Source of the DNA: a virus
Lineage: Duplodnaviria; Caudoviricetes
DNA length: 64,000 nt
IMG/VR virus record: IMGVR_UViG_3300037297_000386
Reading direction: 5' to 3' (one strand)
Shown here: positions 33,417 to 64,000 of the stretch, piece after piece
Position numbering within the stretch: position 1 is the first letter of the stretch
How the letters are laid out: each line of letters starts with the position of its first letter
Notes under the pieces: generated by a model
What the model was told of the DNA's origin: nothing
The model's database searches: none
The model's input: only the letters and a program-made list of their open reading frames with translations
Translations under genes and position numbers: made by a program

Positions 33417-33808
33417 TAATATCCTCCTTCCGAATAAATAATCTCTACATTATTTCCAACTATGCCTTTAAGACCGTTATTACATAACATTGCTCCTATT
33501 GCATCGCCTGTACCATCGGAATAACCTATAAGAACTTTTTTGCCATTTTCTAAGGCTTTTTTAGATTTTTTGTATTGTTCATGTACCCATGAATCATCTT
33601 CGTCTTTAAGCCATTCTTCAATTGTATTGTAGCCACAGATCCATTCTTTAAAATAATAATTATCAAGATCATCTATTGAGTTAATTATATGTGCATAATT
33701 TGCTAAATCAATTTCCATGGATAATGTAATCTTTGTAGTAATATTATCTACTGCAACTATAAAACTACTGCTAGAACTATTACTTACAAAATTATTTCTT
33801 ATTTTCAT
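33416..33808 (-). CDS. MKIRxxFVSNSSSSSF-family protein
   Basis: N-terminal motif MKIRNNFVSNSSSSSF. Confidence 0.75.
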   Translation of the reverse strand: MKIRNNFVSNSSSSSFIVAVDNITTKITLSMEIDLANYAHIINSIDDLDNYYFKEWICGYNTIEEWLKDEDDSWVHEQYKKSKKALENGKKVLIGYSDGTGDAIGAMLCNNGLKGIVGNNVEIIYSEGGY

Positions 33809-40299: not shown

Positions 40300-41493
40300 T
40301 TACATTCCTGTTCCTACTACTGTATATTTATTACTAGTAAATATTTTCTGTGCAACTTGGTATACATCTTCTACAGTTACTGCATCTATTTCTGATAAAA
40401 ATTTAGATCCGATTGTATAATCAAAAAATTCTTTATATATTGACTGCATAGTTGCCGAATTTGAAGAATCTAATGATTTATAATAAGAACTACGTATTAT
40501 ATTTTTTGCTCTCTTTAGTTCATCATTAGTTGGGCAAGAGGATTTCATTTTTTCTATTTCTTCATCAATAGTATCTGTAACTTTATCTCTATTTTTAGGT
40601 TCAGTAGAAGTATAAATTTGATATACGCTACCGTCCATGTGATGGTCATTATATGATCCTATGCCACATACTAAACCAAGATCTTCACGAACTCTAGTAA
40701 ACAATCTAGACGTATCGCTGGACCCGAAAATAGTCGAAAATACTTTTATTTTAGCACGATCTTTAAGTGAGGATATCCTTAATGATTCTCCAGCAAAACC
40801 AATAGATATTGAATCTTGAATTTGTCCATCTTTATGTATTATATCGTATGATGGTTGCTTGTATGTAATATTATTTGTTTGTGCGGGATATAATAATATA
40901 TCATCCGGAATATTAAAATATTTTTCTACAAGATCCATGCGATCTGACGGAGATCCTAATGTTATTAACATATGCTCATTGGTATAAAATTCTTTATTAA
41001 ATTTTGTTATATGATCACGTGTTATAGAATTAACACTTTTTTCTGTGCCGACAATTGGAGATACCAAAGAGTTATCTTTAAAAATATTATCAACCATCTT
41101 ATAGTAAACCAACCAATCTAAATCATCTTCATACATTTTAATTTCTTGACAAACAACATCTTGTTCTTTTATTAACTCATCCTCTGGAAAAATTGGGTTT
41201 AGTATAATATCAGAAAGACACTTAAAAGCAGTTTCAATATTCTCTTCAGGAATACTCATATGATATAATACAAGATCAGCACTTGTCCATGCATTCCATG
41301 AACCACCATAGTCTGCTGTTTGTTTTAACAGATCCTTCGCTGTATATTTTTTAGTACCCTTGAATCTCACATGTTCCATATAATGTGCTATACCTTTTGG
41401 ATATGTACTATTATATTCAACTCTAGATCCGGCACCAAAAGCTATCATTAAAGTTGATAATTTACTCGGATGCTTTACAAATTTATATTTCAT
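40300..41493 (-). CDS. M16 (pitrilysin) zinc peptidase
   Basis: Inverzincin HYMEH..FKGT, NAWT, EQDVVCQEIKMYED, SRLF..VREDLGL. Confidence 0.92.
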   Translation of the reverse strand: MKYKFVKHPSKLSTLMIAFGAGSRVEYNSTYPKGIAHYMEHVRFKGTKKYTAKDLLKQTADYGGSWNAWTSADLVLYHMSIPEENIETAFKCLSDIILNPIFPEDELIKEQDVVCQEIKMYEDDLDWLVYYKMVDNIFKDNSLVSPIVGTEKSVNSITRDHITKFNKEFYTNEHMLITLGSPSDRMDLVEKYFNIPDDILLYPAQTNNITYKQPSYDIIHKDGQIQDSISIGFAGESLRISSLKDRAKIKVFSTIFGSSDTSRLFTRVREDLGLVCGIGSYNDHHMDGSVYQIYTSTEPKNRDKVTDTIDEEIEKMKSSCPTNDELKRAKNIIRSSYYKSLDSSNSATMQSIYKEFFDYTIGSKFLSEIDAVTVEDVYQVAQKIFTSNKYTVVGTGM

Positions 41494-41540
41494 TCTTACT
41501 CCATAAATTTAATCTGCATATATAGTTCCCTAAAATACGG

Positions 41541-41879
41541 TCATTTGTGACCAATAAGTTCTTGGGTAGAGGAGACTATAGGCTTCCCCCTTGAAACATT
41601 CCAATAGAAACCTTTTCTATTTTTATGCTTCAATCGTGTTGCCTTCATAATCGAAGGCAAAGGCGTAGCAATATTACAGGCAGCGTTATAATCCGAATCG
41701 CATTCATACTTGCATGCTTCGCATTGAAAGTGCTTGCCTTTTCTATTACTACTACGAACCCAGCCACAGTTACTACACCTTTGTGAAGTGTAAGTAGGAC
41801 TTGTGTATTCTACGGAACATCCTTGGGATTTACATAAATCTTCTAACTTACGGTAGATTTCGGTGTAGGTAGAGTGGCA
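41541..41879 (-). pseudogene. tnpB: TnpB (IS200/IS605/IS607 family) C-terminal remnant
   Basis: Hand translation: TYTEIYRKLEDLC...PTYTSQRCSNCGWVRSSNRKGKHFQCEACKYECDSDYNAACNI...NRKGFYW; no in-frame start. Confidence 0.88.
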
Positions 41880-42020
41880 TTATCCATTTGTTTAAAATAA
41901 TCCATAAAAAACTCCAAAGCTATCAAATATACTAATAAATATTATAAGAAAAGCCGTATTTAAAATATAATATATTAATAAAAAAAATTAATATTTATTA
42001 GATATATTCAATAACCAAAT

Positions 42021-43972
<1,952 letters not shown>

Positions 43973-48164: not shown

Positions 48165-48611
48165 TTATCTTTTTCTTTTGGGATCAATACTGGCCTTAAT
48201 CCACTCCTCTTTAGTTAATTTCTGTCCATTCAAGTACCAATACTTAGCACCATTAGGATATTCAATAGCAGGACCATCTTCACGATGAAGCTTTCCATCC
48301 AAGTACCAATACTTAGTACCATCGGAATATTCAACAGCGGGACCGTCTTCGCGGTGACGTCTTCCATTAAGGTACCAATACTTAGTACCATCGGAATATT
48401 CAATAGCAGGACCGTTTTTACGATGGTATTGGCCATTCAAATACCAATACTTAGTACCATCTGTATATTTAATGATATAGGTTCCAATTTCAACATCAAG
48501 TGGTTCTATTGTAATAGGATTTCCATATTCATCTTGCCAGTGGATCTCATTTCTTGTTTTAGTGGTAAGACCTGCTAACAGGGCAGTATAAGCATTGTGT
48601 AAAATAGTCAT
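48165..48611 (-). CDS. Leader plus HREDGPA beta-repeat protein
   Basis: Leader LHNAYTALLAGLTTKTRNEIHW; three 23-aa HRxDGPAIEYxxGxKYWYLNG repeats. Confidence 0.85.
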   Translation of the reverse strand: MTILHNAYTALLAGLTTKTRNEIHWQDEYGNPITIEPLDVEIGTYIIKYTDGTKYWYLNGQYHRKNGPAIEYSDGTKYWYLNGRRHREDGPAVEYSDGTKYWYLDGKLHREDGPAIEYPNGAKYWYLNGQKLTKEEWIKASIDPKRKR

Positions 48612-48686
48612 TTTATCCTTATATTATTTATCTTTAAAAATTTATTAGCGATAAAAATATTAATAATTTACAAAATTTAAAAATAA

Positions 48687-49124
48687 TTATGTTTTACTAG
48701 TGCGTGTCTTAATCCACTCTTCTTTAGTTAATTTCTGTCCATTTAAATACCAATACTCAGAACCATTAGGATATTTAATAGCAGGACCATCTTTGCGATG
48801 AAGCTTTCCATTCAAGTACCAATACTTAGCACCATCATAATATTCAACAGCAGGGCCATTTTCACGGTGAAGGTCCCCGTTCAAATACCAATGTTTAGTA
48901 CCATTGGAATATTCAACAGCAGGGCCATTTTCACGGTGAAGGTCCCCGTTCAAATACCAATGTTTAGTACCATTGAAATATTTGAAGATATAAGTCCCAA
49001 GTTTAATATCAAGTGGTTCTACTGTAATAGGATTTCCATATTCATCTTGCCAATGAATCTCATTTCCTGTTTTGGTAGTAAGTCCTGCTAACAGAGCAGT
49101 ATAAGCATCATGCAATAAACTCAT
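48687..49124 (-). CDS. Leader plus HREDGPA beta-repeat protein
   Basis: Start MSLLHDAY; two repeat units identical over 66 bp (48841-48906, 48910-48975). Confidence 0.85.
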   Translation of the reverse strand: MSLLHDAYTALLAGLTTKTGNEIHWQDEYGNPITVEPLDIKLGTYIFKYFNGTKHWYLNGDLHRENGPAVEYSNGTKHWYLNGDLHRENGPAVEYYDGAKYWYLNGKLHRKDGPAIKYPNGSEYWYLNGQKLTKEEWIKTRTSKT

Positions 49125-49474
49125 TCTATTCGTTTTCCATGTTCCCATTCTTCTTCCGAATATTTCCGTCCATTTTTATACCAACAAGTAGTTTTACCAT
49201 GTTGTTGCCCATCTTGCCATTCTTTTTCCCAATGTTTTTGTCCGTTCCTATACCATCTGATATATTTACCATGAAGTTGGCCATTTTGATATTCTGATTC
49301 CCAATATTTTTGCCCATTCCTATGATAATAACGAATAATATATCTCTCTTGTTTAATATCAATTAATTTTATCGTAATGGGAATACCATATTTATCTTGC
49401 CAATAAATCTCACTTCCTGTCTTACATGTTAATCCTGCTAGAAGAGCAGTATAAGCATCGTGTAATAGTGCCAT
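49121..49474 (-). CDS. Leader plus MORN-variant (YwqK-like) repeat protein
   Basis: HGKYIRWYRNGQKHWEKEWQDG. Confidence 0.85.
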   Translation of the reverse strand: MALLHDAYTALLAGLTCKTGSEIYWQDKYGIPITIKLIDIKQERYIIRYYHRNGQKYWESEYQNGQLHGKYIRWYRNGQKHWEKEWQDGQQHGKTTCWYKNGRKYSEEEWEHGKRIE

Positions 49475-49908
49475 TACTTCTTCCCTATTAAATTATTAAA
49501 CTCTTCTTCGGTCAAGTGTTTGCCATTTAGGAACCATGCTTTGGTACCATCTGCCCACACAACAGCAGGACCATCTTCACGATGTAGTTTGCCATTTAGG
49601 AACCAGTATTTGTCGCCACCTGCATATTCAATAGCATGGCCATCTTCACGATGTGGTTCACCATTTATACACCATGCTTTAGTACCATCTACCCGTATAG
49701 CAGCAGGACCGTCTTCGCGGTGAAGCTTATCATTCAAGTACCAAAACTTATCACCACCAACATACCTAACAATATAGGTACTAATTTTAATATCAAGTGG
49801 TTCGACAGTGATAAGTTTTCCACTTTTATCTTCCCAATTAATCTCATTTCCTGTTTTGGTAGTAAGTCCTGCTAATAGGGCAGCGTAAGCATCATGTAAT
49901 AGTGTCAT
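49474..49908 (-). CDS. Leader plus HREDGPA beta-repeat protein
   Basis: Leader and three repeats. Confidence 0.85.
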   Translation of the reverse strand: MTLLHDAYAALLAGLTTKTGNEINWEDKSGKLITVEPLDIKISTYIVRYVGGDKFWYLNDKLHREDGPAAIRVDGTKAWCINGEPHREDGHAIEYAGGDKYWFLNGKLHREDGPAVVWADGTKAWFLNGKHLTEEEFNNLIGKK

Positions 49909-50076
49909 GGTAATTTACCTATGTATTTTAAACCCATTTTAAATGACAAAAGAACTTTTAATTAATATTTATTTTGTACTATAAAATATAATAATTTTAA
50001 ATAAAATCTTAATACCATATTTTTATTATTGTTTTTCGTAATTCATCCGTTTTTAGCAATGAGTTTGACATTCTGT

Positions 50077-50346
50077 TTACCAAGCCACCTCTTGTCCATT
50101 TGGGCTATACCAACGAAGTACGCAACCTCTAACTCCAGGAGCAGGAACGCAGTGAACTACCTTATCTTTATCTACGATGCGATGAGTGGTTCCTCTCTCG
50201 CGAAAAAATAATCGCTGTGGATTATTAATACGATATGTATGCCGTTGTCCAGCATCTTCCCATTCATATTCTCGCCATTGTTCGTCTGAAACATCGTAAG
50301 GTCCTAATAACTCTCCACTTCTGTCTTCATGTGATTGTGTAGTCAT
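50077..50346 (-). CDS. Hypothetical protein
   Basis: RBS AAGGAG; visibly GC-richer than flanks. Confidence 0.65.
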   Translation of the reverse strand: MTTQSHEDRSGELLGPYDVSDEQWREYEWEDAGQRHTYRINNPQRLFFRERGTTHRIVDKDKVVHCVPAPGVRGCVLRWYSPNGQEVAW

Positions 50347-50371
50347 AACAATCTCCTTTCAAAATTTAATA

Positions 50372-50518
50372 CTAGTTTTTTAAAGTAAATAATAAATGAA
50401 ACAATTTTGTATCAATTGCTAATCTAATATCTCTTTTGCCAAACTCATTGCTTCGTGCGAGAACTGAAAACAAATGAATATGAAAAAATTTATTATTTAT
50501 TTCGAAATGTGGTTTCAT
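50372..50518 (-). CDS. 48-aa protein MKPHFEINNKFF..., copy 2
   Basis: Paralogue of 45149-45307; not in ORF track. Confidence 0.75.
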   Translation of the reverse strand: MKPHFEINNKFFHIHLFSVLARSNEFGKRDIRLAIDTKLFHLLFTLKN

Positions 50519-50586
50519 ATTAATATTAATTTCCTATTTTTTATATTTCTTAATAGCAATTAATGTTTTTATATCAGTTGGTTATT

Positions 50587-50991
50587 TTAATATTCATATT
50601 CGTTCTCTTTTTTACCATTTTTAGACCACCAAATATATTTACCATATAGTCTTCCATTTTGATATTCGTATTCATATTCTTTGTTACCGTTCTCATACCA
50701 ACCAATGTATTTACCATGGGGTTTTCCACTTTGATATTCGTATTCGAAACTTTTCTCGCCGTTTTTATATCGACCAACGCCTTTACCATGACGTTTATCA
50801 TTTTGATATTCTATTTTATGTTCAACTTGTCTGTTTGGATAATAATATCTGACAATGTATCTACACTTTTTTATATCAATCGGTTCTACTGTAATTAGAT
50901 TTCCGTTTTCGTCATTCCAATGTATTTCGTTTCCAGTTTTATAAGTTAGGCCAGATAGCAAGGCTGTATAAGCGTCATGTAGCAAGTTCAT
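50587..50991 (-). CDS. Leader plus MORN-variant repeat protein
   Basis: Ends at TAA where paralogues have CAA (YQN). Confidence 0.85.
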   Translation of the reverse strand: MNLLHDAYTALLSGLTYKTGNEIHWNDENGNLITVEPIDIKKCRYIVRYYYPNRQVEHKIEYQNDKRHGKGVGRYKNGEKSFEYEYQSGKPHGKYIGWYENGNKEYEYEYQNGRLYGKYIWWSKNGKKENEYEY

Positions 50992-51483
50992 AATAATTTT
51001 CCATCTTGATATTCACCTTCATATTCTTTATTGCCGTTCTTATGCCAATTAATACTTTTGCCATGGTGTTTTCCATATTGATATTCACCTTCAAACATTT
51101 TTGGTGCCATTTTTATACCAGCTAATATATTTACCATGTAGTTTTCCGTTTTGGTATTCTCTTTCGAATTTTTTATTACCATTTCCGTACCATCTAATGC
51201 TTTTACCATGGCGTTTTCCGTTTTGATATTCATTTTCGAACTCTTTATTACCATTCGCATACCAAGCAATACTTTTGCCATGGTATTTTTCGTTTTGATA
51301 TTCCATTTCATGTTCAACTTGTCTATTTGAATAATAATATTTGACAATATATCTACACTTTTCTATATCAACTGGTTCTACTGTAATAGGATTTCCATAT
51401 TCATCCTTCCAATGTATTTCGTTTCCAGTTTTGTAAGTTAGACCAGACAATAAAGCGGTATAAGCGTCATGTAGCAAACTCAT
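50988..51483 (-). pseudogene. Leader plus MORN-variant gene with +1 frameshift
   Basis: Extra base in T5 run 51098-51102 splits it into track ORFs 51091-51483 and 50988-51347. Confidence 0.75.
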
Positions 51484-51830
51484 AATAATTTTCCATTTTG
51501 ATATTTGTGTTCATATGCTTTATTACCGTTTTCATACCAATAAATATTTTTACCATGTAGTTTTCCGTTTTGGTATTTTGCTTCGAACCATTTATTGCCG
51601 CTTTCATACCAATTAATGCTTTTACCATGACGTTTTCCGTTTTGGTATTCTGTTTCCCAATGTTTTTGCCCATTTTTAAAATACCTACGAATAATGTATT
51701 TATTTTGATTAATATCAATTGGTTCTATTGTAATGGGATTTCCGTTTTTGTCATTCCAATGTATTTCGTTTCCAGTTTTGTAAGTTAGACCAGATAGTAA
51801 GGCGGTATAAACGTCATGTAGCAAACTCAT
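51480..51830 (-). CDS. Leader plus MORN-variant repeat protein, intact
   Basis: Ends YQNGKLL with ATGA overlap. Confidence 0.85.
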   Translation of the reverse strand: MSLLHDVYTALLSGLTYKTGNEIHWNDKNGNPITIEPIDINQNKYIIRRYFKNGQKHWETEYQNGKRHGKSINWYESGNKWFEAKYQNGKLHGKNIYWYENGNKAYEHKYQNGKLL

Positions 51831-52536
51831 AATAATTTTCCATCTTGATATTTGTATTCATGTGCTTTATCGCCGTTCTCATACCAATCAATGATTTTGC
51901 CATGGTACTCCGTTTTGGTATTCACTTTTCGAATCTTTTCTTGCCGCTTTCATACCAATCAATGTTCTTGCCATGGGGATTTCCATCTTGATATTTGCGC
52001 TCATATTTTTTTTTGCCATTCTCATACCAACCGATGTTTTTACCATGTGGCATTCCGTTTTGATATTCGCCTTCGAACTCTTTATTACCATTCCAATACC
52101 AACCAATATATTTACCATGTAGACTTCCGTTTTGATATTCGCATTCATATTCTTTGTTACCGTTTTTATACCAACCAATGAACTTACCATGTAGTCTTCC
52201 GTTTTGATATTTATTTTCACATTTTTTCTTGCCATCTTTATACCAACTAATGGTTTTGCCATGACGTTTTCCGTTTTGGTATTTTCTTTCAAATCTTTTC
52301 TTGCCGCTTTCATACCAATCAATGTTCTTGCCATGGTATTTTTCGTTTTGATATTCTGTTTCATGTTTAATTTGGCTGTTTGAATAATAATATCTAACGA
52401 TATATCTATATTTTACTGTATCAATCGGTTCTACTGTAATGGAGTTTCCGCTTTCATCCTTCCAATGTATTTCATTTCCAGTTTTGTAAGTCAGACCAGA
52501 TAGTAAGGCGGTATAAGCGTCATGTAACAGATTCAT
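51827..52536 (-). pseudogene. Longest leader plus MORN-variant gene, 3' frameshifts
   Basis: Intact to 51922; extra base at T4 51926-51929 and a nearby 2-nt deletion precede a normal ...YQDGKLL end. Confidence 0.75.
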
Positions 52537-52991
52537 AATAATTTTCCACCTTGATATTCGTGTTCATATCCTTTATTGACACTCTCGTACCAACTAATGG
52601 TTTTACCATTTAGTCTCCCATTTTGGTATTCATTTTCGAACCATTTAGTCTCCCATTTTGGTATTCATTTTCGAACCATTTATTGCCGTTTTTGTACCAA
52701 CCAATGTATTTACCATGTAATTTTCCGTTTTGGTATTTTGCTTCGAACCATTTATTGCCGTTCTCGTACCACCTAATGACTTTTGCCATGGTATTTTTCA
52801 TCTTGGCATTCTATTCTATATTCAACTTGTCTATTTGGATAATAAGATTTGACAATATATTTGCATTTTTCTATATCGACTAATTCTATTGTAATAGGAT
52901 TTCCGATTTTATCCTTCCAGTGTATTTCATTTCCAGTTTTATAAGTTAGGCCGGATAATAAAGCGGTATAAGCGTCATGTAACAAATTCAT
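52533..52991 (-). pseudogene. Leader plus MORN-variant gene with frameshift and 35-bp tandem duplication
   Basis: Extra base at T4 52781-52784; exact 35-bp duplication 52605-52639/52640-52674. Confidence 0.8.
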
Positions 52992-53005
52992 AATAATTTT
53001 CCATT

Positions 53006-53482
53006 TTAATATTTTTCTTCAAACCTTTTATTGCCGTTTTTGTACCAACCAATGTATTTGCCATGGAGCTGTCCGTTCTGATATTCTGCTTCGAACTCTT
53101 TATTGCCATTCTCGTACCAACTAATACTTTTACCGTGGCGTTTTCCATTTTTGTATTCACCTTCGAATATTTTATTGCCATTCTCATACCAACCGGTATT
53201 TTTACCATGTGGTATTCCATTCTGATATTCGCCTTCGAATTCTTTATTGCCATTCCAGTACCAACCAATGTATTTGCCATGTAGTTTTCCGTTTTGATAT
53301 TCTATTTCATGTTCAACTTGTCTATTTGGATAATAAGATTTAACGATATATCTACACTTTTCTATATCAACTGGTTCTACTGTAATGGGATTTCCATTTT
53401 CGTCATTCCAATGTATTTCGTTTCCAGTTTTATAAGTTAGGCCAGATAGCAAGGCTGTATAAGCATCGTGTAACAAATTCAT
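53006..53482 (-). CDS. Leader plus MORN-variant repeat protein
   Basis: Start MNLLHD at 53482; TAT-TAA-AAT stop replaces YQN. Confidence 0.85.
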   Translation of the reverse strand: MNLLHDAYTALLSGLTYKTGNEIHWNDENGNPITVEPVDIEKCRYIVKSYYPNRQVEHEIEYQNGKLHGKYIGWYWNGNKEFEGEYQNGIPHGKNTGWYENGNKIFEGEYKNGKRHGKSISWYENGNKEFEAEYQNGQLHGKYIGWYKNGNKRFEEKY

Positions 53483-53964
53483 AATAATTTTCCATCTCGA
53501 TATTTGCATTCATATCTTTTATTACCGTTTTCATACCAACCAATGTATTTACCATGGCGTTTCCCGTCTTGGTATTCACTTTCGCGGTATTTATTACCAT
53601 TTTCGTACCAGTTAATGTTTTTACCATGTGGCATTCCGTTTTGATATTCTTTTTTGAAATATTTCTGTCCACTCTCATACCAACCAATATATTTGCCATG
53701 TAGTCTTCCATTTTGATATTCTTCTTCAAATCTTTTATTGCCGTTTTCGTACCAACCAATACATTTACCATGGCATTTCTCGTCTTGATATTCACTTTCC
53801 CAACATTTTGCCCCATTTTTAAAATATTTACGAATAATGTATTTATTATTAATTGGTTCTATTGTAATTGGATTTCCATATTCGTCCTTCCAATATATTT
53901 CATTTCTGATTTTATAAGTTAGACCAGATAATAAAGCGGTATAGGCGTCATGTAATAAATTCAT
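53479..53964 (-). CDS. Leader plus MORN-variant repeat protein, intact
   Basis: First gene of the 50.6-54.0 kb tandem block. Confidence 0.85.
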   Translation of the reverse strand: MNLLHDAYTALLSGLTYKIRNEIYWKDEYGNPITIEPINNKYIIRKYFKNGAKCWESEYQDEKCHGKCIGWYENGNKRFEEEYQNGRLHGKYIGWYESGQKYFKKEYQNGMPHGKNINWYENGNKYRESEYQDGKRHGKYIGWYENGNKRYECKYRDGKLL

Positions 53965-54145
53965 TTTATTTTCAATTTTTCTATTTTTTTAATTTTTATT
54001 TTTTAATAATTTATACACTTTATAGGATGACACATTATAATTTTTTTTGGTTAATATTTTTCCACAAAGTGACATTTTTTGTATTTCTTTCTACTCTGAC
54101 ATTCAACACCGATCGTTTTATCCTTTTGGTTCTCATAGAAATTTA

Positions 54146-54159
54146 TCGGGGAAAGTAGG
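54146..54159 (-). repeat. Right copy of 14-bp inverted pair (TCGGGGAAAGTAGG on + strand)
   Basis: Reverse complement of 47017-47030; intergenic. Confidence 0.6.
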
Positions 54160-54182
54160 ACAAATCTTTTTTATTAAATTTA

Positions 54183-54638
54183 TTAATTATTTTTATTTAT
54201 TTCATATATACAATATGCAGAAGTTTCTTTTATTATCTTATATGGTAAATAAACTAAATACTGATGCACACCATATTTTGTAGTATAATCTTTTTTAATA
54301 TCCCGCCTGACTGTTATATATATTTTGCCAGATTTATTTATCAAACCTTTTAATTTATTTATTACTGCTCGTCGTTTATTAATATTGACAACATTTAAAA
54401 CATAAGAACATAATACAATATCATATTTTTTATCTAATAAATTTTTAGTAGGATTCCAATATGGATCATAGCCATTAGCATTATAATTATTTAATTGTAG
54501 CCAGGTGTAATCTGTTCCTCTTCCACAACCAAAATCTAAAATTTTATCGTCTTTATTTATTTTGTTATCATTGATTAATATGCGAAGCGGTAAGGATGGC
54601 CGTTTTCTTACAATTGCGGTTTTGTATGAATTATTCAT
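54183..54638 (-). CDS. Class I SAM-dependent methyltransferase
   Basis: ILDFGCGRGTD, GYDPY, YDIVLCSYVLNVV, VRRD. Confidence 0.85.
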   Translation of the reverse strand: MNNSYKTAIVRKRPSLPLRILINDNKINKDDKILDFGCGRGTDYTWLQLNNYNANGYDPYWNPTKNLLDKKYDIVLCSYVLNVVNINKRRAVINKLKGLINKSGKIYITVRRDIKKDYTTKYGVHQYLVYLPYKIIKETSAYCIYEINKNN

Positions 54639-54804
54639 GGTCGGATTTAATCTCTTTAATATTTAATATTTTAAATGCTTTCTTTCGTAGCATATTACAG
54701 ATTTTTTGCCAATGTTTTTCACAAAGTCCGCGCCCAAGATACACTATATCAGAATCCCTTCCGCATTTTTTATATTGACATTTATTTTCTATATCAGTTA
54801 ACAT
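54631..54804 (-). CDS. 57-aa Cys/His protein
   Basis: Hand-translated MLTDIENKCQYKKCGRDSDIVYLGRGLCEKHWQKIC... Confidence 0.55.
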   Translation of the reverse strand: MLTDIENKCQYKKCGRDSDIVYLGRGLCEKHWQKICNMLRKKAFKILNIKEIKSDHE

Positions 54805-55194
54805 TATTATATTTCCTATTGACTTGGCATCAAATAATAATTAGTCCAATAATGTGGTATATATGTATTATCATTAAAAATGACTCTAATTAAGTAACCT
54901 TGTTTACCACAATTTGTTATTTTTTCTATGCTAATTCTTTCATTTAATATATCATTATACAGATAAAATACAAAAATATTCATATTTTTGTTTTTACAAA
55001 AACTCTTCATTATCATAAAAAGTACCAATACAAATTATTCTTCCATCATACACTTTAATAAGATATTTGGTTGTATAAAATGAATCGTAATTACGATGTT
55101 TAATAGTAATTATATTATTCTTATATTTTACATTTCTGTTACAATTTAATATATTTTGATATAAATGTTTAAGAGTTCCGTTCATTTTGATATT

Positions 55195-55437
55195 TTAATT
55201 ATTTTCAAATGGTGCATCTTCTTCATATTCATAATCTTCATATTGATTAACCCTGGCAAGATATTCTATTACAGTTTCCATTTTATCTGTGAGTGCCATA
55301 TTAACTAAAACATTTGCAACATCGGCTGGTATATTCTCATCTACCAACCTGGTATTTCCATTCTCTTTAATTCGATATAAACAAAATCTGCCACTTTTAA
55401 ATGATAACATAAAATCATCATATAAATCTAAATCCAT
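55195..55437 (-). CDS. Hypothetical acidic protein
   Basis: RBS AGGAG; unrelated to array families. Confidence 0.6.
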   Translation of the reverse strand: MDLDLYDDFMLSFKSGRFCLYRIKENGNTRLVDENIPADVANVLVNMALTDKMETVIEYLARVNQYEDYEYEEDAPFENN

Positions 55438-55917
55438 AATTGATACTCCTTTATTAAAAAAATTAAATTATTAAAATCTTATGAATTTAACCGTCCCAAT
55501 TGATTTTATACATTCTTCAATTATATAACGATTTTCTACCACATGTTGTGGCCACAGGACATAACTTTTAATAATAATTACATTCTCTTTTTGTTTAATC
55601 TGCCATTTTGGATTAAAGAAACATCCATATATAAAAATTATATTCTTATTTATCAATTTATTTACTCTTTCGTATGTTGATAGGATTACCATAAGAAATT
55701 GGTCTTATATCTTTACCCATTATATATCGATCTTCTGCTATATAACCGTATATATAATATGGACTTTTAATAGTAATAATACCATTCTTTTGTTTAACTA
55801 TCCCATCTTTATATAATAAAGAACTATATATATGTCTTATACTTGGATTCATTTTAAACATACTATATAATTTCCACTATTCGCAAAGGAATAATTGTAA
55901 TTAATTTATTATCTATA

Positions 55918-56103
55918 TCAATAAAATATTTCACGATATTTATATCCATCTTTATAATATCTTACAATATATCTTTTCTTTTTAATATCTATTGGTTCTA
56001 ATGTAATAGGATTTCCAATTTTATCATGCCAATGAATTTCATTACCTGTTTTATAAGTGATACCAGACAGTAAGGCCACATAAGCATCATATAATAAATT
56101 CAT
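55918..56103 (-). CDS. Leader-only member of the LLHDAY family
   Basis: MNLLYDAYVALLSGITYKTGNEIHW...; no repeats. Confidence 0.75.
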   Translation of the reverse strand: MNLLYDAYVALLSGITYKTGNEIHWHDKIGNPITLEPIDIKKKRYIVRYYKDGYKYREIFY

Positions 56104-57045
56104 CTTAAATCCAAAAAACTTCTTTAGAATAATATCTTTCTAAAAAATTATTTTAGTTTTTGAATGTCATCTCTCATAAAGATTATTTTACCAACATCTT
56201 TGTCAATTAAATAATGATCTATATATTTATAATCACCATTGTAACGACGGTAATAAGTTTTGATGACAATTATTGTATCTTTTTGACTTACCGTGATTCT
56301 TGTGGTATAGACAGGCATTGAGATATATAAATCTACAATTTCAAGATCCATTAATATATTCCTATATTTTATCAATTTTATTGGTTATATAAATTATTTT
56401 TCCTAATTTTTTATTAATTGAATAATAATTTGTAAAAAAGTATTTATGATTATTAGCAAATGTAGTTTTTATTATAATAGAATTATTTTTTTGATTAACA
56501 TCACTTTTAGAATATAATAATATATTATATAAATTTACTATATTACTATTCATTTTTCTTTTTCCAATACTATATTTTCATTTTTTAAACAATTTGGACA
56601 ACACCAATTTACGATAATTATATCGCCTTCTTAATTTATATATATTACCCTATTACTTTTATCAATTATAAAATATGTTATATATTCCGAAATTAATTTT
56701 ATTATTAAATACTATTACCATATTTTTTATAGTAACAGTATTGTTTGTTTAAACAATACTACTATTAAGATATAAATATTCTTTATATAAATATAGAATT
56801 TCTTTACTAATTTCTATTATACATTTTTCATACCCGAAGATGCCATATAAATTTTATTTTTTATTCTATCAATTATATAATTACAATAAAATTTATATTG
56901 AAAACAATACCATTTTATGGTTATTATATTATTGCATTGATATATATTCATTGTATCTCTTTGGATACTTAATATAGTTTGATATAATCTATAAATATTT
57001 GTTGTCGTATCCATTCTAAAAATCCATTATTCTAATATGAGATAT

Positions 57046-57303
57046 TTATTTTCTTGGAAAATATTTATATCTTGCTGTAATCATCCATAATATAAATTGC
57101 AAAATGTAACTGGATAATAAAGCCGAATCCCATCCAATTTCTGATATTACATAAATTGTCATTAGGACAAATCCAACCAATAATGTCCAAATTAATATAT
57201 GTGATATACCCTGTGAATGCCCATCTCTTATCGACTTGACTACTTGTCCTACTGTTGCTAATATAAATAATATAGAAGCTATTATTCCAAAATATTTAAT
57301 CAT
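57046..57303 (-). CDS. PQ-loop/SemiSWEET-like three-TM protein
   Basis: GIIASILF...GQVVKSIRDGHSQGIS, three TM segments. Confidence 0.7.
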   Translation of the reverse strand: MIKYFGIIASILFILATVGQVVKSIRDGHSQGISHILIWTLLVGFVLMTIYVISEIGWDSALLSSYILQFILWMITARYKYFPRK

Positions 57304-58492
57304 TATTTAATATTGAAGCAGTTTTAACTGTTAAACCTCATTATTCCTTGGCCATTTCACTATTGTTATAAGATATATAACCGTAAAGTTCATTAATTAA
57401 ATAATAATCTGTGAATTTAAAAATATTATTGTTGTAAAAATATCTTACAATAATTAAATTATTATCTTGTCTTAAATCTCTATTAAAATATAATTTTGCC
57501 ATATATAGATATATAATTGTATTATCAATTTTACTATATAACATTTTTAATTACCATGATATTCTGCTCTCGGTCTTTATAAAAATAATATTACCTTTTA
57601 TTCCGTTGATAAAATAATAATATATAAACTTATGGTGATTAAAAGGGCGACTCTCAATACTAATTATATTATTTCTTTGGAGAGCATTTCGTTCAAAATG
57701 CAAAAGATTCCGATACAAATGCCATATATTATTATCTATTAAAGTTCGGATTATCATAATTTACATCTCTATCAATATAAAATATTTGGCCCATTTTTGT
57801 AACCGAATAATAATTAATAAGTTTGTACTTATAGTCATAATTATAACTTGATGTTATAATCATATTATCTTTTTGATTTATATCGCTTTTAAAATATAAA
57901 ATATCTTTATATAAACTATACATAGTATAAGTCATTATTTTAATCACCACAATTTTTTTCTTACACTTCCCTTGTATATTATTTTTCCTGTTTCCTGAAC
58001 AATAGAATAATAGATTCTAAATTCATAATTAAAACCGTTAGTTTTTATAGTAATCAAATTGTTTGTTTGATTTATTTTTCGTTTAAAACACAATATATAT
58101 TTATATAAGGTAACAATATTATTGTTCATGATATTTTTAATACTATATTTGAGAATTCCTATATATGATCTTATAATGTCATAAGAAGGATTAATTGTAT
58201 TTGTTCTCCACTAATAATTTTAAAAAGAGATAAAGATTTGATTTGAATATATTGGAGCCCACAGGCATAGCATATAATGTATTATATTATGACTAAACCA
58301 ATATGAATATTCAATAATTTTTCTATCATTCTTTAATATTTCTATATATAATTTAAATAAATTAGGCTTCTTCATATTTTTATCATTCGTGTAAACAAAT
58401 ATGTATTATCGTATTATATTCTTTTCTAATATTTATACCCAAATATAGCTAAATCTATTAATATTTTATAAAATTATTTTAAGGAAACCCTA

Positions 58493-58654
58493 ATGATCAA
58501 GTCCACTAAGTTATCTACAAAATTTACCAACAAAATCAAACTGGATAATTTAAACTTGTTCATCGACGAATATCGTCGGGTAGTTTCCCAATTCGTAGAT
58601 ATCCTTTGGCCTCAAGATAAAATCCCAAAACTATTACCTAAAGCCACAATCTAA
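58493..58654 (+). pseudogene. tnpB: TnpB N-terminal remnant (53 aa)
   Basis: RBS AAGGA then MIKSTKLSTKFTNKIKLDNLNLFIDEYRRVVSQFVDILW...IPKLLPK, a pattern recalled from TnpB N-termini; lies antisense to the array. Confidence 0.65.
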
Positions 58655-59294
58655 TGTCTCCATAATTTTATCAAATCGCTCAAATATGGCATTTAAGTCT
58701 ATATTATTATGCATTTTTGATTTCCTTTCATTGCTGACGCTCCAACAAATAGATATGCATTATATGATGGTGGTGGTAAATAGATTAGATATGAATCATC
58801 GTAAAGTGATGGATTATATATTATGTCAACTTTCATATTATATTTAAGTATACCTATGTATAATTTTAAAATATTTTGTGGTATATCAGAAATCAAATCT
58901 TGTTCCATTGTATTTACCATAAATAAATATATGTATGCGGATGCAATAAGCAAATTAAATATAGACCATTAAATCCAAACGGATTATATATTCCATTAAC
59001 TTTCATATTATGCACAAGAACTCCGATATATAATTTTAATATATTTTGTTTTAAACTATTTTGTAATATATTAGAAATCATATTTTTCAACTTATTTGCC
59101 TTATAAATAAACATATATATCATATTTTGGATGCGGTAAAATAATTATATATGGGCTACCAACCAAAAATGGATTTTTATATGCCTTCGGAATTTTTATA
59201 TTATATGTAAGCACATTGATATATAGTTTTGTAATATCGTATGAAATATTAATAACCTTTCTTTTTTATTCTTTTATAAAATTGAATTAAAATA

Positions 59295-59738
59295 TTATTT
59301 ATTTATAATTTTCCCGTCTTTATATTTTCCTTCTGAATATTTAATGCCATTTCTATCCCAATTAATAAACTTACCATTAAGGTTGTTATCTTGATATTCT
59401 AATTCACATTGTTTATTGCCATTTTCATACCAGACAATGGATTTGCCATTAAGTTTCCCTTTTTTATGTTCCTGTTCCCATTTTTTATTACCACTTGTAT
59501 ACCAATCAGCAGATTTACCATGAAGTCTTTCTTTCTGATATTTATATTTAAATTTCTTATTACCATTTGAATAATAATATCTGACGATATATTTGCACTT
59601 TTTTATATTAATCGGTTCTACTGTAATAGGATTTCCGTTTTCGTCCTTCCAATGTATTTTATTTCCAGTTTTATAAGTTAGACCAGACAATAAGGCTGCA
59701 TAAGCGTCATGTAATATAGTCACTATTAATTTCTCCAT
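59295..59738 (-). CDS. Leader plus MORN-variant repeat protein
   Basis: ILHDAYAALLSGLTYKTGNKIHW; four repeats. Confidence 0.85.
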   Translation of the reverse strand: MEKLIVTILHDAYAALLSGLTYKTGNKIHWKDENGNPITVEPINIKKCKYIVRYYYSNGNKKFKYKYQKERLHGKSADWYTSGNKKWEQEHKKGKLNGKSIVWYENGNKQCELEYQDNNLNGKFINWDRNGIKYSEGKYKDGKIINK

Positions 59739-62474
59739 AAATATTTTAGCAAATAAATAAACTTTGAGATGCTGACTACCAAGATTTTCAAGATAAAAAA
59801 CATAATATTTTTCATTCGGAAAGAATAAATAGGATGTCTTAATGATTATTCCGTTATTTTTTAATATTTCTATGTAGAATAAATATAATAATCCAAGTAA
59901 TGCTTCTACTGTATAATTTTTCGATTTAAAATTTTATACACACATTATTCTTGTATTTGAATATACTGCCACCCATAACATTCAAGAAAAATAGCATAAA
60001 ATACAGCATTATCCGTTTTTTATATACTTATAATATAAATATCTTCTACTAATTTTTATATTAAATTTTAATATAAAACAATATAAATTACATATATCAT
60101 ATGGAATAATTTTTTTCATTATCTGTTTAAATTTTTTTCTGTTATAAAAAAATATTTATTTCATTTGAATATGGTCCACAACTTAAATATACAATATAGA
60201 CATCTACATGAAGTTCTAAATCACGGATTTTCCAATTATCCCTTAATACTTTAAGATATAATGAATATATATTATGTGAAATTTTATTCATAAATTTGTA
60301 TCTTATCATTTTAATTGTTTTAATTTAATATATAAATGGCCAAAGTCCTTAAAATAAATACCATAATATCTTGTATCAAAAGTACAAAAACACTTTGTTC
60401 CAACAATTTCCCAATTTTTTCCCAACATTCCAATATACAATATTCTTACAGTATGTAAATTATTCATAAAATTAAAAAACTCCAAATTAATTTTTTATTA
60501 TTAAGAATATATATTTAAACATAATTTACCTATAATTTTAGATATATAAATCTTGGGTCCCCAGATGGGCCGAATTCTAAATATATAACCCGAAAGTTAT
60601 TTTTATCAAAACGTATATTTTTTTTATTAGTAGAAACAATCTTTCTTTTTTCATTAAGAATATAATGATATAATTTGCTTATATTAAATTGGACACCATT
60701 CACATTTCAGCCACTTTCTTTTAGTGTAATATTTTCCAAATCTGTATCCATAAAAACTACTTATTCATCACTTGACCACAGACAAACATATGGTGTATGA
60801 TCTGATTTTATTGGATATGGATAATTTGACACATAAATGTTATAATAAATTCGATCATTAAATTTCGACTGTCTAATTTCGACAGTTTTTCTACTATATT
60901 TAAGTATCGTGATATACAACTTGTAAATTCTCCATGAAATATTATGAAACACAAATTTCTCCATTATATTTGTTGATCATATAAATATATATATACAATA
61001 CTTTTATTCGTTTGATGTTTTAAATGAATTATGTATGGATTATTGGACAAAAAATTTGTTCTATATGTAGCACTAACTATTCTATTTTCTTTAAGTATTA
61101 CGATATATAATCTAATTAAATTACTTGCAAAATTTCTATTCATAATTTCTTTACCGCCCGTCGTCTCGCAAATAAATAACATAATTATATCGTAAAGATG
61201 GTTTATGAGAAAGATAAATGGCATAGATCTTAATTCCAATAGAGAGATAAATTCTAGATATATCTATAACTCTATTTTTACCATTCAATAGAAGACCATA
61301 TAACTCAATTATCTTATTAGACATATTCTTATTCAAAACCTAATATAAATAAAGTTTAAGACATTCAGAAACAGTGCCATCCATAGGAAGGCAAAAAACA
61401 TAAATATATATACCATTAGGAGAACGGTAACGATATGTATCAACAATTTCCTTATTTCTCTTTAAAAAACTAAAATATAATAATTTTAAATCTAAATAAA
61501 TCATATTACCCACAAAAAATATTTCCCGTTAATATAAATTTAAATAAAGCGTAAAATGTTTAAGACATTTTACATGAATGCAATATCTTTTGTCATTTTC
61601 ATGCCAAGATGTCCCAATAATTTTTCCATTACTCTTTAATATTTTAATATAGAATATTTTTAAGTCCCAAGAAATATTATACATTTTATTTAATGATTAT
61701 CTATTTTTATATCTATTGAACAAATAATATGGGCCAGAATATGAATACGACGTTAAGTAAACAAGATAAAATTCAATATTGTAATCAGAATAAATTGGGC
61801 ATGTTCTTACTATTTTACAATTTTCTTTTAATATTTGAATATATAATTTAGACAAATCATATGGACTGGTTTTTTTCATTTGACATTCACTTTTGAAGGC
61901 ACTCAATTTTCATTCTCCCATAAATAAATTTTTTCGTAAAGACTATATCCCATTCCTGATTCCAAATAACCAATACTAAATTTTGTATTATATGAATAAT
62001 GAAATTCGTGAATATCAGTAACCTTTCCATTATTTTTTAATAATGCAATATATAATTTAATTAGGTTATGTGAAGATTCATTCATATATTTCTTGCAAAT
62101 AAATAAATATATTCAGGATAATATCCTGGCCTTTCAATAGTAATGATACGATAAAGTAATGAAGCGGATGTAAATTGTGGCACTAATGTGATTTTTTTAT
62201 TACTTGTTAATATTCTTATATATAATCTGTATAAATCACTAGTCATGATTCATCACCATAGCGGTAACCATCTGGACAATTTTACTTTGATTTCTTTGTT
62301 ATCCACACGTATATAAATTCGCTGAAAGCATGCGCATCTTAGGTTCTTTTATAAAAAAGTATAATATTTTAAATTTTTACATGGTGAATAAATAGGATAT
62401 GCATCAACAATTTTCTTATTTCTTTTCAATATTTTAATATAAAGTTCAAACAAATTATTAACCATATTTATTTC

Positions 62475-62867
62475 TTAATAATTGTCGTTACTCACAAATT
62501 GAATAAAAGTTTGTAATTTAGCTTTGCCAATTGAACCTATTTTGTTTTCAATTTTTTGGCGCATTTCCAAATCAGAAACGTCTGGAATAATCCCAACGAC
62601 TCCATCATTAAGATCAACCATAGTAACACCCACAATAACATCGGCACTATTAGCATCTTCATCAGAAAAATAATATCGAGTTGATTCTAATACAACTTTT
62701 TCTTTGCCATATGCATACCCGAACTTATTATAAACTTTATTAAACAAATCGCCTTTATTGGGGTCAATATCCAACTGTTTAGCTAAATCCTTTATTTTCA
62801 TTCTTAATCCTCGAACAACGAATGATGAACTTGAACTGTTACTAACAAAACCTTGTCTAATCTTCAT
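62475..62867 (-). CDS. MKIRQGFVSNSSSSSF-family protein
   Basis: N-terminal motif. Confidence 0.75.
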   Translation of the reverse strand: MKIRQGFVSNSSSSSFVVRGLRMKIKDLAKQLDIDPNKGDLFNKVYNKFGYAYGKEKVVLESTRYYFSDEDANSADVIVGVTMVDLNDGVVGIIPDVSDLEMRQKIENKIGSIGKAKLQTFIQFVSNDNY

Positions 62868-64000
62868 TATTTACCCTTTAATTTTTAAAATGGCCTAATA
62901 ATATCCTCTACGCTACCCACCTGGACCATCGAGGATCGTTATAATTATATTCAATACAATATTATCATTCATATTTTAACCTTACTATGGATTTTATTAT
63001 CATTAATTCGTAAGAAAACACTTTCAATATGATCGTGCCATGAACATTTCAGATAAAATGCATGATAATTATAACCACCATAAGGTGAGGACCATATATC
63101 TGCTTTAATAATTTTTCTACCGTTAAACAGTAAAGTATATAGAAGAATTATATTATTATCGATAGCCATATCCATTTTTATATTGAATTTTTTATTTTTA
63201 TCAAATATGTGATCTTTTTGAACGCAAATATGTTGAACTTGGAGAATCCAAAATAATATAATATAAAAAAATTAGGGAAAAATTTCATACTTATCACTTT
63301 TCCATTAAAAATAAGCAATTCAATATATAATCTATAAATATTTAATTCAAGTGATATTATATCTTTATTCATTAAAATATGTCTTGCCCTATATAAATGA
63401 TAATTTCTGGTGATAAACGGATACAATATATAAAATCGTCGTCGCTCCATGGTGGCGGATTTTCGACAATTTTATTGTTATGTTTAAGTAATGATATATA
63501 TAGATCGGATATTTTAATTGACATATTATAAAATATATCCTTTATTTTATTGGCATGCAACAATAGTGAACAACACCATTTCCTGGTTTTTTAGTAATAA
63601 TGTTGCAATATTATACATTTGTTCCTATTTATGTCCATAAATGGATTATAAGAACATCTACCGGGTGTGAGATTTTTAACCATACGCTATAGAATACCAT
63701 ATTACTAATGTAACAGTAATTATAAGATGATTTTATAACTTTTCCGTTTTTATATAATATTTCTATATATAATCTATAAACATCACATGAAACCATTATT
63801 TATAATTTTTCCTATTATCTTTTATTGTATAGATGAATAAATGCGATATTATTAGGATTTGGATATAATAAATGAATAACGTACATATGCGTATTATCAA
63901 TAACAGAATAATTTTCACTCATTCTAATAATTTTTAATTTATTTTTTAATATTACATTATATAATTGTAATAATTCAGGTACTATATTGACTTCATACAT

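Follow-up and report, generated by a model that had tools for sequence, protein, structure and literature searches.

The window, by which we mean the whole stretch of 64,000 nucleotides analysed, carries a set of related small genes that begin with one common leader of about 50 amino acids. A leader-only HMM was built from the leader alignment and used in a profile search of the stop-to-stop frames of the window. It recovered exactly 13 matches, all on the minus strand between positions 48165 and 59738, with E-values from 1e-29 to 1e-37 (Table 1), which confirms the number of leader-bearing genes given in an earlier note on this DNA. That note divided them into three genes with HRxDGPA repeats, nine with MORN-type repeats and one without repeats. 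The first and last of these counts stand, and the MORN set is made up of eight genes with MORN_2 units and one broken, frameshifted pseudogene; the repeat-free copy is a leader-only ORF. The copies do not form a single run: they are found in two blocks (48165-49908 and 50587-53964) and as two outliers (at 55918 and 59295), with unrelated genes between.

Table 1. Leader-bearing copies and their displaced remnants, in window positions
Copy	Position	Strand	Description	Basis
H1	48165..48611	-	Leader, three full 23-aa HRxDGPA repeats, terminal partial repeat, C-terminal helix; 148 aa	Leader HMM E 4.6e-31; TRF period 69 nt, 3.6 copies; AF2 pLDDT 93.6
H2	48687..49124	-	Leader and HRxDGPA repeats; 145 aa from MSLL start; ORF open to 49148	Leader HMM E 1.1e-32; TRF period 69 nt; ATGA overlap with stop of 49121-49474 gene
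M3	49121..49474	-	Leader and two 24-aa MORN_2-type units; 117 aa	Leader HMM, unit alignment
H4	49474..49908	-	Leader and HRxDGPA repeats; 144 aa	Leader HMM, TRF
M5	50587..50991	-	Leader and three MORN_2 units; 134 aa	Leader HMM; PF07661 below cut-off
M6, 3' relic	50988..51090	-	Out of frame (...FEGEYQYGKHHGKSINWHKNGNKEYEGEYQDGKLL, then stop), ending in ATGA junction with M5	Three-frame translation
M6	51091..51483	-	Leader and MORN_2 units; 130 aa; truncated by frameshift in A5 run	
M7	51480..51830	-	Leader, two MORN_2 units, canonical ...YQNGKLL end; 116 aa; ATGA overlap with M6	
M8, 3' relic	51827..51921	-	Shifted by two frameshifts; ...YQDGKLL end, then stop, and ATGA junction with M7	
M8	51922..52536	-	Leader and six MORN_2 units; 204 aa	PF07661 42.7 bits
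T9, repeat units	52533..52775	-	Out of frame, with 35-bp tandem duplication	TRF, three-frame translation
T9	52776..52991	-	Broken member; leader intact, stop after 71 codons	Leader HMM E 3.4e-36
M10	53006..53482	-	Leader and four MORN_2 units; 158 aa	Leader HMM, unit alignment
M11	53479..53964	-	Leader, four full MORN_2 units, canonical end; 161 aa	PF07661 36.1 bits; AF2 pLDDT 93.8
L12	55918..56103	-	Leader-only ORF, 61 aa, within unrelated array of small ORFs	Leader HMM E 1.7e-34
M13	59295..59738	-	Outlying copy; leader and three MORN_2 units; 147 aa	Leader HMM, unit alignment

An identical stop/start junction, ...GGAAAATTATTATGA, lies upstream of seven genes in total. Coupling of the genes by ATGA overlaps, as earlier described, was found at three intact junctions (53479-53482, 51480-51483 and 49121-49124); before four further genes it survives as a relic of the same junction, the frame of the upstream neighbour being lost or stopping early. 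The stop of H4 shares one base with the next start (TAATG). Four of the 13 copies are damaged, by frameshifts at the 3' end, a nonsense change or the duplication of 35 bp. For instance, T9 has a +1 insertion and, at 52605-52682, a 35-bp tandem duplication without mismatches (TRF period 35 nt, 2.2 copies, 100% matches), and M10 stops six codons early at a TAA that replaces the CAA of the other copies. The frameshifts could be assembly errors of the metagenomic contig and not real decay. The other nine copies have complete frames, with translational coupling kept. Apart from the 35-bp duplication, TRF found no near-identical long repeat pair of the template/variable kind seen in DGRs between 48 and 60 kb.

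The HRxDGPA repeat (WYLNGxxHRxDGPA) has a period of 69 nt, or 23 aa, by TRF in its three copies. The MORN_2 period, previously given as 22 aa, is 72 nt, and each of the 26 complete units has exactly 24 aa. M8 and M11 score above the PF07661 gathering score of 29.6 bits, the other tested MORN_2 copies reach 17-23 bits, under the cut-off, and PF07661 gave no match to the H-type copies. None of the curated NCBIfam models of YwqK type was matched, the best NCBIfam score (17.8 bits against a cut-off of 250) belonging to an unrelated adhesin model. The two types also differ in their C-terminal caps, which read ...YQNGKLL or ...LIRKIL in the MORN_2 type and form an LTxEEW helix in the HRxDGPA type. 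Per-column entropies show that the variable positions of the K-x-I-x-W motif are genuine. Diversifying selection at these sites is nevertheless not demonstrable, because of saturation and because pN does not exceed pS (0.49 and 0.74, respectively, both near saturation).

Among the leaders of the window, nucleotide identity is 64-92%, with a mean dN of 0.12, a mean dS of 1.07 and a dN/dS of about 0.11. The leader had been called conserved at the DNA level, but the nucleotide conservation is only moderate, and the low dN relative to dS indicates that conservation acts on the protein. Between genomes, leader dN is 0.08-0.23, dS is saturated and G+C content ranges from 30 to 43.5%; G14, E22, I23, W25, T34 and E36 are among the leader positions conserved in 86-94% of the 80 family sequences compared. 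The leader of M3 is nearer to the H-type leaders than to those of other M-type copies, and L12 has a dN/dS of 0.04-0.23 against the other leaders. Across the array, pairwise dS runs from 0.3 to 1 or more, and leaders and structural repeat positions have a dN/dS of 0.03-0.2; therefore most copies have long been under purifying selection. These values weigh on the reading of the array as neutral "accordion" DNA, a recombination by-product in which only a single copy or a few are important, the others being duplicates in decay with no function of their own. The four damaged copies, the near-saturated pN and pS of the variable positions, as expected for unconstrained surface sites, and a very uneven copy number among related contigs all fit it. 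Such old copies, however, would hardly have kept so low a dN/dS, nor nine complete, coupled frames, and we regard this explanation as decidedly improbable.

Structures were modelled with AF2 for M11, representing the MORN_2 type, and for H1, representing the HRxDGPA type. The M11 model has a helix at residues 3-12 followed by unbroken hairpins over residues 17-156, and the leader elements of the H1 model are the same. In both, the leader is one helix and two beta-hairpins that run on into the repeat sheet. MORN_2 clusters of the Atlas (96-100% PF07661 members) superpose on the M11 model from residue 5, 9 or 11 to residue 161, with a TM of 0.81-0.84 and an rmsd of 2.5 A over 150 residues. Entries of AlphaFold DB that bear the name YwqK or MORN align from residue ~17-24 onward (TM 0.7-0.82), and the H-type model likewise matches MORN and YwqK entries; in these comparisons with the Atlas and AlphaFold DB, both sides are predictions. 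Matches in the PDB were MORN1, junctophilin, SET7/9 and single-layer-sheet OspA variants. Because both models and the MORN_2 superposition include the leader region, the leader is, as modelled, a family-specific N-terminal cap. The earlier note had allowed for a leader that simply caps a known YwqK fold, and the superposition points to precisely this. A discrete F-box-like adaptor domain was rejected, since in both models the leader passes into the repeat sheet without a break; the proposed constant adaptor joined to a variable binder thus loses its separate domain. The idea that the two repeat types are unrelated was also rejected, both being MORN-superfamily hairpins by their structure matches. 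Profile comparison found no sequence similarity between leader and repeat units, and the leader hairpins may, by their modelled fold, be degenerate repeats.

The leader is rare. A search of 1.84 billion (1.84e9) representative proteins gave 69 matches at E <= 1e-3. In 66 of them the leader stands at the N-terminus or close to it, six of those sampled have HRxDGPA repeats, and none of 50,697 deposited phage genomes contains the leader. Elsewhere it precedes MORN_2 repeats or HRxDGPA repeats and, in single cases, a peptidyl-tRNA hydrolase domain or a MerC-like membrane domain. The HRxDGPA module without the leader is present in cultured phages. The related metagenomic contigs, of which five pieces of context were examined for phage identity, apparently come from large phages. 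Six of them hold 11, 6, 5, 5, 4 and 3 leader copies, mostly in tandem runs, against 13 here; repeat number goes from 0 to about 9, and minimal forms made of cap and C-cap recur in several genomes. The earlier picture of a single leader on interchangeable repeats is borne out by the two repeat types and the varying repeat number, a pattern that also exists outside the window. In the leader tree, which is of low resolution, copies tend to group by genome. No neighbour gene that could be a candidate hub was found to be common to the window and the related contigs.

These distributions bear on the possibility that the family is an adaptor library, in which the leader docks all members on one phage or host hub and the repeats bring substrates, with counter-defence as the outcome. 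Both within and between genomes the leader is much better conserved than the repeats, it is attached to two repeat types and singly to the other domains named above, leader-only or near-minimal ORFs occur in several genomes, and it lacks detectable similarity to the repeat units; all this would suit such a library. However, the leader lies within the common sheet in both models, no shared neighbour suggests a hub, and searches of Pfam, NCBIfam, PHROGs and PADLOC matched no known adaptor family. Ordinary pairing across the strands of a single-layer sheet could also account for several conserved polar positions, the exposure of conserved leader residues having been judged from strand alternation. 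We consider an adaptor library unlikely. Still, the cap is conserved far beyond the apparent need of a purely structural cap, which hints at a further function, and it may bind a common partner.

A constant N-terminus could instead send the proteins into the capsid or into co-injection, so that their bodies act at the start of infection. In T4-type phages, polymorphic internal proteins share a capsid-targeting sequence, and the constant N-terminus, the polymorphic small proteins and the plastic region recall those loci; the conserved leader motif ITVE/ITIE, moreover, ends in Glu like prohead-protease sites. In the M11 model, however, ITVE is a central beta-strand (residues 32-38, pLDDT ~90) and not an exposed cleavable linker. 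Known targeting peptides are short, whereas the leader, of some 50 aa, is predicted to be folded as part of the protein. A packaging or delivery signal therefore seems very improbable.

The tested neighbours encode an NfeD-like protein, a methyltransferase, an HNH protein, an M16 peptidase and proteins of no known family. Pfam, PHROGs and PADLOC identified no toxin, defence or anti-defence family among them, and no cognate toxin gene of LXG or deaminase type adjoins the array as ywqJ adjoins ywqK. Together with the lack of an NCBIfam YwqK-type match, this leaves the proposed anti-defence or anti-toxin repertoire unsupported. A signal-peptide-like N-terminus is absent from the array proteins.

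The explanation that we favour, and that we hold to be likely though well short of certain, is a lineage-specific, tandemly amplified multigene family that evolves by birth and death and encodes small cytoplasmic binding proteins built of capped repeats, in a phage of ~312 kb from wetland metagenomes. Each protein would be one continuous single-layer ribbon of beta-hairpins of the MORN_2/YwqK type, in three parts: the N-terminal cap, with its helix and two sequence-diverged hairpins, then 0 to ~9 hairpins of 24-aa MORN_2 or 23-aa HRxDGPA units, and a short C-terminal cap. Expansion and contraction of the array are probably due to unequal recombination involving the conserved junctions and the repeats, and the decay in the damaged copies would be the death side of family turnover. 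Inside the infected cell, to judge from the fold and from YwqK, the proteins may act as a set of protein-binding modules. The variable face of the sheet (unit positions 7, 11, 13, 22 and 24) would give them different targets, on the model of YwqK binding and neutralising the YwqJ deaminase toxin. The cap would mainly shield the open sheet edge and nucleate folding, and it may also contact something common to all copies. A stronger version, in which the cap is a dedicated docking surface that ties diversified single-sheet binders, and occasionally enzymes such as a peptidyl-tRNA hydrolase, to one phage or host structure, is in our view distinctly unlikely. If it were true, these phages would have a germline "binder library" with which to take over the host or counter its defences; no such architecture is known to have been described in bacteriophages.

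Libraries of adaptors with repeats exist in large eukaryotic viruses as F-box/ankyrin and BTB/kelch repertoires. In capped repeat binders such as ankyrin-repeat proteins and LRR proteins, e.g. lamprey VLRs, conserved caps flank variable internal units, and the array proteins are alike in their caps, variable unit number and varying exposed positions. Unlike those, they are predicted to be a single beta-sheet and not a solenoid, they are germline paralogs and not products of somatic assembly, and their binding is putative. The closest likeness in fold is to the MORN_2/YwqK family (PF07661), which includes B. subtilis YwqK, the immunity protein of the T7SS toxin YwqJ: both are predicted to be ribbons of hairpins of ~22-24 aa (TM 0.7-0.84), and the array proteins are likewise small, cytoplasmic and probably protein-binding. 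YwqK co-purifies with the YwqJ deaminase toxin and protects against it (bioRxiv 10.64898/2026.09.29.755374). The array, in contrast, is phage-encoded, tandem and without an adjoining toxin gene, and the 50-aa N-terminal cap is confined to it and its relatives (66 clusters among the 1.84e9 proteins).

In Fusobacterium, MORN2 genes have been expanded by local duplication, and their diversification was ascribed to recombination between repeats (Manson McGuire et al. 2014, PMC4222103). The massive local duplication of PF07661 genes and the variable repeat number are shared with the array. The Fusobacterium proteins are mostly exported, with signal peptides in 87% and a proposed role at the surface or in adhesion (PMC4222103), whereas the conserved N-terminus of the phage proteins is modelled as a folded cap.

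Expansions of repeat genes are already known from large viruses, and in giant viruses MORN is among the multigene repeat families (PMC5753266). Our structural matches include many giant-virus MORN-repeat proteins, several per genome (e.g. Orpheovirus), as well as phage MORN proteins. Lineage-specific tandem expansion and variable repeat number unite the array with the viral MORN, ankyrin, FNIP and kelch families (PMC5753266); tandem paralogs, variable repeat number and a copy number that differs between related genomes were all found here. Multi-copy "MORN repeat protein" genes without the leader, found in Celeribacter phage P12053L and Agrobacterium phage Atu_ph07, share 43-67% identity with the HRxDGPA module. 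What sets the present family apart from those of giant viruses and large phages is the leader, a single cap common to two repeat subtypes.

The leader profile, which covers the ~53 N-terminal residues common to the small repeat genes (61 columns of the family alignment), picks out 13 window frames and no others; each lies on the minus strand, and the E values run from 1e-29 to 1e-37. Together with the repeat analysis, this bears out the 13 copies and the repeat classes reported in the earlier note. The MORN_2 unit, previously counted as 22 residues, is 24 aa (72 nt) long in 26 of 26 complete units, and Pfam PF07661 (MORN_2) scores two copies above its threshold and the others below it. Along the window the genes fall into two blocks and two outliers. 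Between these lie unrelated genes, among them a methyltransferase, an 89-aa PHROG of unknown function and further small ORFs in arrays. Coupling by ATGA overlaps, which had been proposed for the genes in general, holds at three intact junctions; the ...GGAAAATTATTATGA stop/start junction itself is kept ahead of seven genes. The leader is indeed conserved, though not primarily as DNA: copies share 64-92% nucleotide identity, with a mean dN of 0.12 against a mean dS of 1.07, so that the conservation between window copies reflects selection on the protein and not recent duplication. Long alternative-frame ORFs lying over the MORN genes (pattern NIKTEN.MVK...), with several more on the plus strand, are a by-product of the stop-poor 72-nt repeat and do not count as genes of their own.

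Coordinates of the leader family and of other features (window positions unless a contig is named)
Feature	Position	Strand	Remark
HRxDGPA-repeat copy	48165-48611	minus	69 nt (23 aa) unit
HRxDGPA-repeat copy	48687-49124	minus	69 nt (23 aa) unit
HRxDGPA-repeat copy	49474-49908	minus	69 nt (23 aa) unit
MORN_2-repeat copy	49121-49474	minus
MORN_2-repeat copy	50587-50991	minus
MORN_2-repeat copy	51091-51483	minus	frame shift within A5 run; 1.5 more repeats out of frame
MORN_2-repeat copy	51480-51830	minus
MORN_2-repeat copy	51922-52536	minus	relic downstream, displaced by two shifts
Broken MORN_2 gene	52776-52991	minus	+1 insertion after codon 70
MORN_2-repeat copy	53006-53482	minus	TAA for CAA of relatives, six codons ahead of end
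MORN_2-repeat copy	53479-53964	minus
MORN_2-repeat copy	59295-59738	minus
Leader-only ORF	55918-56103	minus
Perfect 35-bp tandem duplication	52605-52682		2.2 copies, 100% identity; in downstream repeats of the broken gene
Alternative-frame ORFs	50988-51347, 51467-51718, 51888-52364, 52975-53280, 53430-53816	minus
A2 small-ORF family	54994-58129	minus	~10 ORFs, 61-75 aa
A3 small-ORF family	58220-64000	minus	~20 ORFs, 51-91 aa; runs beyond window end
A3-type frame	59739-59900	minus	no ATG/GTG/TTG; stop-free into MORN gene 59295-59738
Membrane protein	57046-57303	minus	85 aa, within small-ORF array
GroEL-type chaperonin, M16 (insulinase-type) peptidase, NfeD-like C-terminal-domain protein	40300-43706 and 47766-48053
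Proteins with GFVSNSSSSSF motif	62475-62867, 32931-33416, 33416-33808; contig L005, 5425-5730
Leader-MORN gene directly upstream of separate peptidyl-tRNA hydrolase gene	contig L011, 611-1673

Family alignments served as input for two AlphaFold2 models. In the 161-aa MORN_2-type protein (53479-53964; pLDDT 93.8), residues 3-12 form a helix and 17-19, 22-26, 32-38 and 41-47 form strands, after which regular hairpins continue to residue 156. For the 148-aa HRxDGPA-type protein (48165-48611) the best model reaches pLDDT 93.6 and the other four 60-84; it shares the leader helix and strands; short-stranded repeats follow, and residues 134-147 form a C-terminal helix. ESM Atlas clusters in which 96-100% of members carry PF07661 superpose on the first model from residue 5, 9 or 11 to 161 (TM 0.81-0.84, rmsd 2.5 A), and for entries of AlphaFold DB with YwqK or MORN in their names the alignment starts at about residue 17-24 (TM 0.7-0.82). 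Structural matches in the PDB are MORN1, junctophilin-2, the SET7/9 N-domain and single-layer-sheet OspA variants; viral ones are MORN-repeat proteins of Orpheovirus, Hyperionvirus and pithoviruses and a 'MORN variant' of an uncultured caudovirus. The HRxDGPA-type model aligns with MORN-repeat proteins at ~50% identity from residue 46 on, leader excluded. Because the leader hairpins superpose on ordinary MORN_2 proteins, the leader is, in these models, one helix plus two sequence-diverged hairpins capping the N-terminal edge of the sheet. The earlier note had taken it for a separate adaptor, and had itself named a capping part of the YwqK fold as the finding that would speak against this; the models and structure searches place it as just such a cap, and not as a domain of its own. 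Profile comparison gave no significant sequence similarity between the leader and repeat units, double units included, a PDB sequence search with the HRxDGPA-type protein gave no match, and language-model look-up of the leader-only ORF gave uninformative scores of at most 0.86.

The 24-aa unit has 13 almost invariant positions (E1, Y2, Q3, H8, G9, K10, I12, W14, Y15, N17, G18, K20 and E23) and eight highly variable ones (6, 7, 11, 13, 16, 21, 22 and 24). By strand alternation in the model, positions 7, 11 and 13 would face away from H8, K10, I12 and W14. Over all unit pairs, pN is 0.49 and pS 0.74 at the variable positions, and 0.06 and 0.55 at the fixed ones; positionally matched units of paralog pairs follow a like pattern, in which a few noisy ratios exceed 1. 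The repeat scaffold shows long-term purifying selection. As for the diversifying selection raised earlier, the strong variability of sites stands; pN is at or below pS overall, but with synonymous sites saturated these values speak neither for nor against such selection.

The canonical ...YQxGKLL end is lost in four family members through the lesions listed in the table. These lesions may be assembly errors and not decay, and the 35-bp duplication is either very recent or an assembly artefact.

Searched alone, as had been suggested, the leader profile recovered its own family: among 1.84 billion representative proteins there were 69 matches at E <= 1e-3. In 66 of them the leader begins a protein of 40-347 aa or sits close to its N-terminus; the other three are large repeat proteins with weak, multiple matches. 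The leader is followed by MORN_2 units in most database members and by HRxDGPA units in at least six, and minimal members of cap plus C-cap recur. Contigs with family members look like large phages, and carry RadC, SprT, radical SAM, NeuB, Pif1, deformylase, HSP20, NAD-salvage and HNH genes. Arrays are frequent on them, with leader copies numbering 11 on L005 (in 9.4 kb), six on L010, five each on L006 (in 2.5 kb) and L011, four on L001 and three on L009; the array contigs have a GC content of 30-43.5%. Between these genomes the leader shares 68-85% amino-acid identity, with synonymous sites saturated. A poorly resolved leader tree tends to cluster copies by genome. It suggests four to five changes of repeat type, but well-supported branches force only one, so that repeated cassette swapping is not demonstrated. 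The leader has no occurrence among 50,697 deposited phage genomes, although a leaderless HRxDGPA module is multi-copy in Celeribacter phage P12053L, Agrobacterium phage Atu_ph07 and a 642-kb uncultured phage. Scans with the family alignment gave pattern matches and no confirmed relatives in IMG/VR, and two weak loci only in JGI metagenomes, where the neighbouring methyltransferase had no match; these scans thus yielded no syntenic array of a close relative for a selection test on orthologs.

The window is AT-rich (GC 21-37%), with all sizeable ORFs on the minus strand. Its large genes match phage families (DnaE-like DNA polymerase, SbcCD, UvsX, FtsK-like, GroEL, tail fibre), and an M16 peptidase and an HNH gene are also encoded. 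The DNA is present in a wetland metagenome run and partly in a marsh one; no RNA run is among those that the sequencing-run search listed. A contig of 311,797 bp carries two of the window's proteins on record, the DNA polymerase is ~33% identical to its best match, and megablast of window 40-60 kb found no deposited phage similar at the DNA level; the window is therefore a piece of an uncultured jumbo phage genome. Family protein P0007, absent from the window, is listed on a contig of this same length, which makes 14 or more copies probable for the genome. The window's GroEL, M16 and NfeD-like genes, with deformylase, methionine aminopeptidase and HSP20 on related contigs, make up a notable protein-maturation set. 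Separately, several window proteins have a short N-terminal motif, GFVSNSSSSSF, in common with an ORF on the related contig L005.

The leader family and two neighbouring small-ORF families, A2 and A3, amount to ~45 small paralogous genes in the region. The A2 pattern is ...LY..hL....(Q)KNN.I.IK...Y..YY.I...G.I.Y, and the one member searched had no match in Pfam; the A3 pattern is ..LYI.ILK.N.KI... Y.IYL ... IYL. The two resemble each other only weakly, at the N-terminus (hhalign E 7e-4, 20 columns). Comparison of the leader with them by hhalign was not significant (probabilities 0.3 and 0.1), and a common origin as a diverged member of either was therefore rejected. The A3-type frame next to the last MORN gene is either a dead copy or has an unusual start or fusion. 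The membrane protein within the array matches PQ-loop at 20.6 bits, short of the cut-off of 22.

The observation thus stands, and its original interpretation is partly supported. Most likely the genes encode small cytoplasmic proteins, each a cap, n hairpins and a cap, of a birth-and-death multigene family; no signal-peptide-like N-terminus was found in them. The family was probably amplified by unequal recombination at the conserved junctions. The idea that the leader docks onto one common partner has a modest probability: cap conservation is very strong and incompletely explained, and a single weak lead comes from P0050 (347 aa), in which leader and repeats precede a complete peptidyl-tRNA hydrolase domain (PF01195, E 2.9e-51), together with the family member adjoining such a gene on L011. 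Another member carries a MerC-like membrane domain, and no non-MORN gene that could serve as partner was common to the window and related contigs. Under the birth-and-death reading, the infecting phage probably uses the copies as a set of modules for binding proteins, by analogy with YwqK of the same repeat family, which binds and neutralises the YwqJ deaminase toxin (bioRxiv 10.64898/2026.09.29.755374) and is the sole functional anchor. Neither neighbours nor family models in the window tie the genes to toxins or defence, a link that had been tentatively proposed.

Large phages hold many expanded small-gene families, few of which have been described structurally or evolutionarily. Here the anatomy is clear, with conserved N- and C-caps around 0-9 hairpin units and one variable sheet face, and the leader profile (~66 clusters, recurring as arrays) defines the family well enough for direct testing. 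Should the copies each bind a different host or competitor protein, the family would amount to a compact natural binder scaffold, and its members to host-manipulation genes of a class new for phages; otherwise they offer a clean case of repeat-gene birth-and-death evolution in a phage. A literature search on jumbo-phage MORN families found nothing relevant. MORN-type expansions are already known from giant viruses (PMC5753266), Fusobacterium (PMC4222103) and some phages, and no long-standing question is opened. The leader-defined array is a variant of these viral and bacterial MORN-repeat gene expansions, and it is this leader-defined form that is new.
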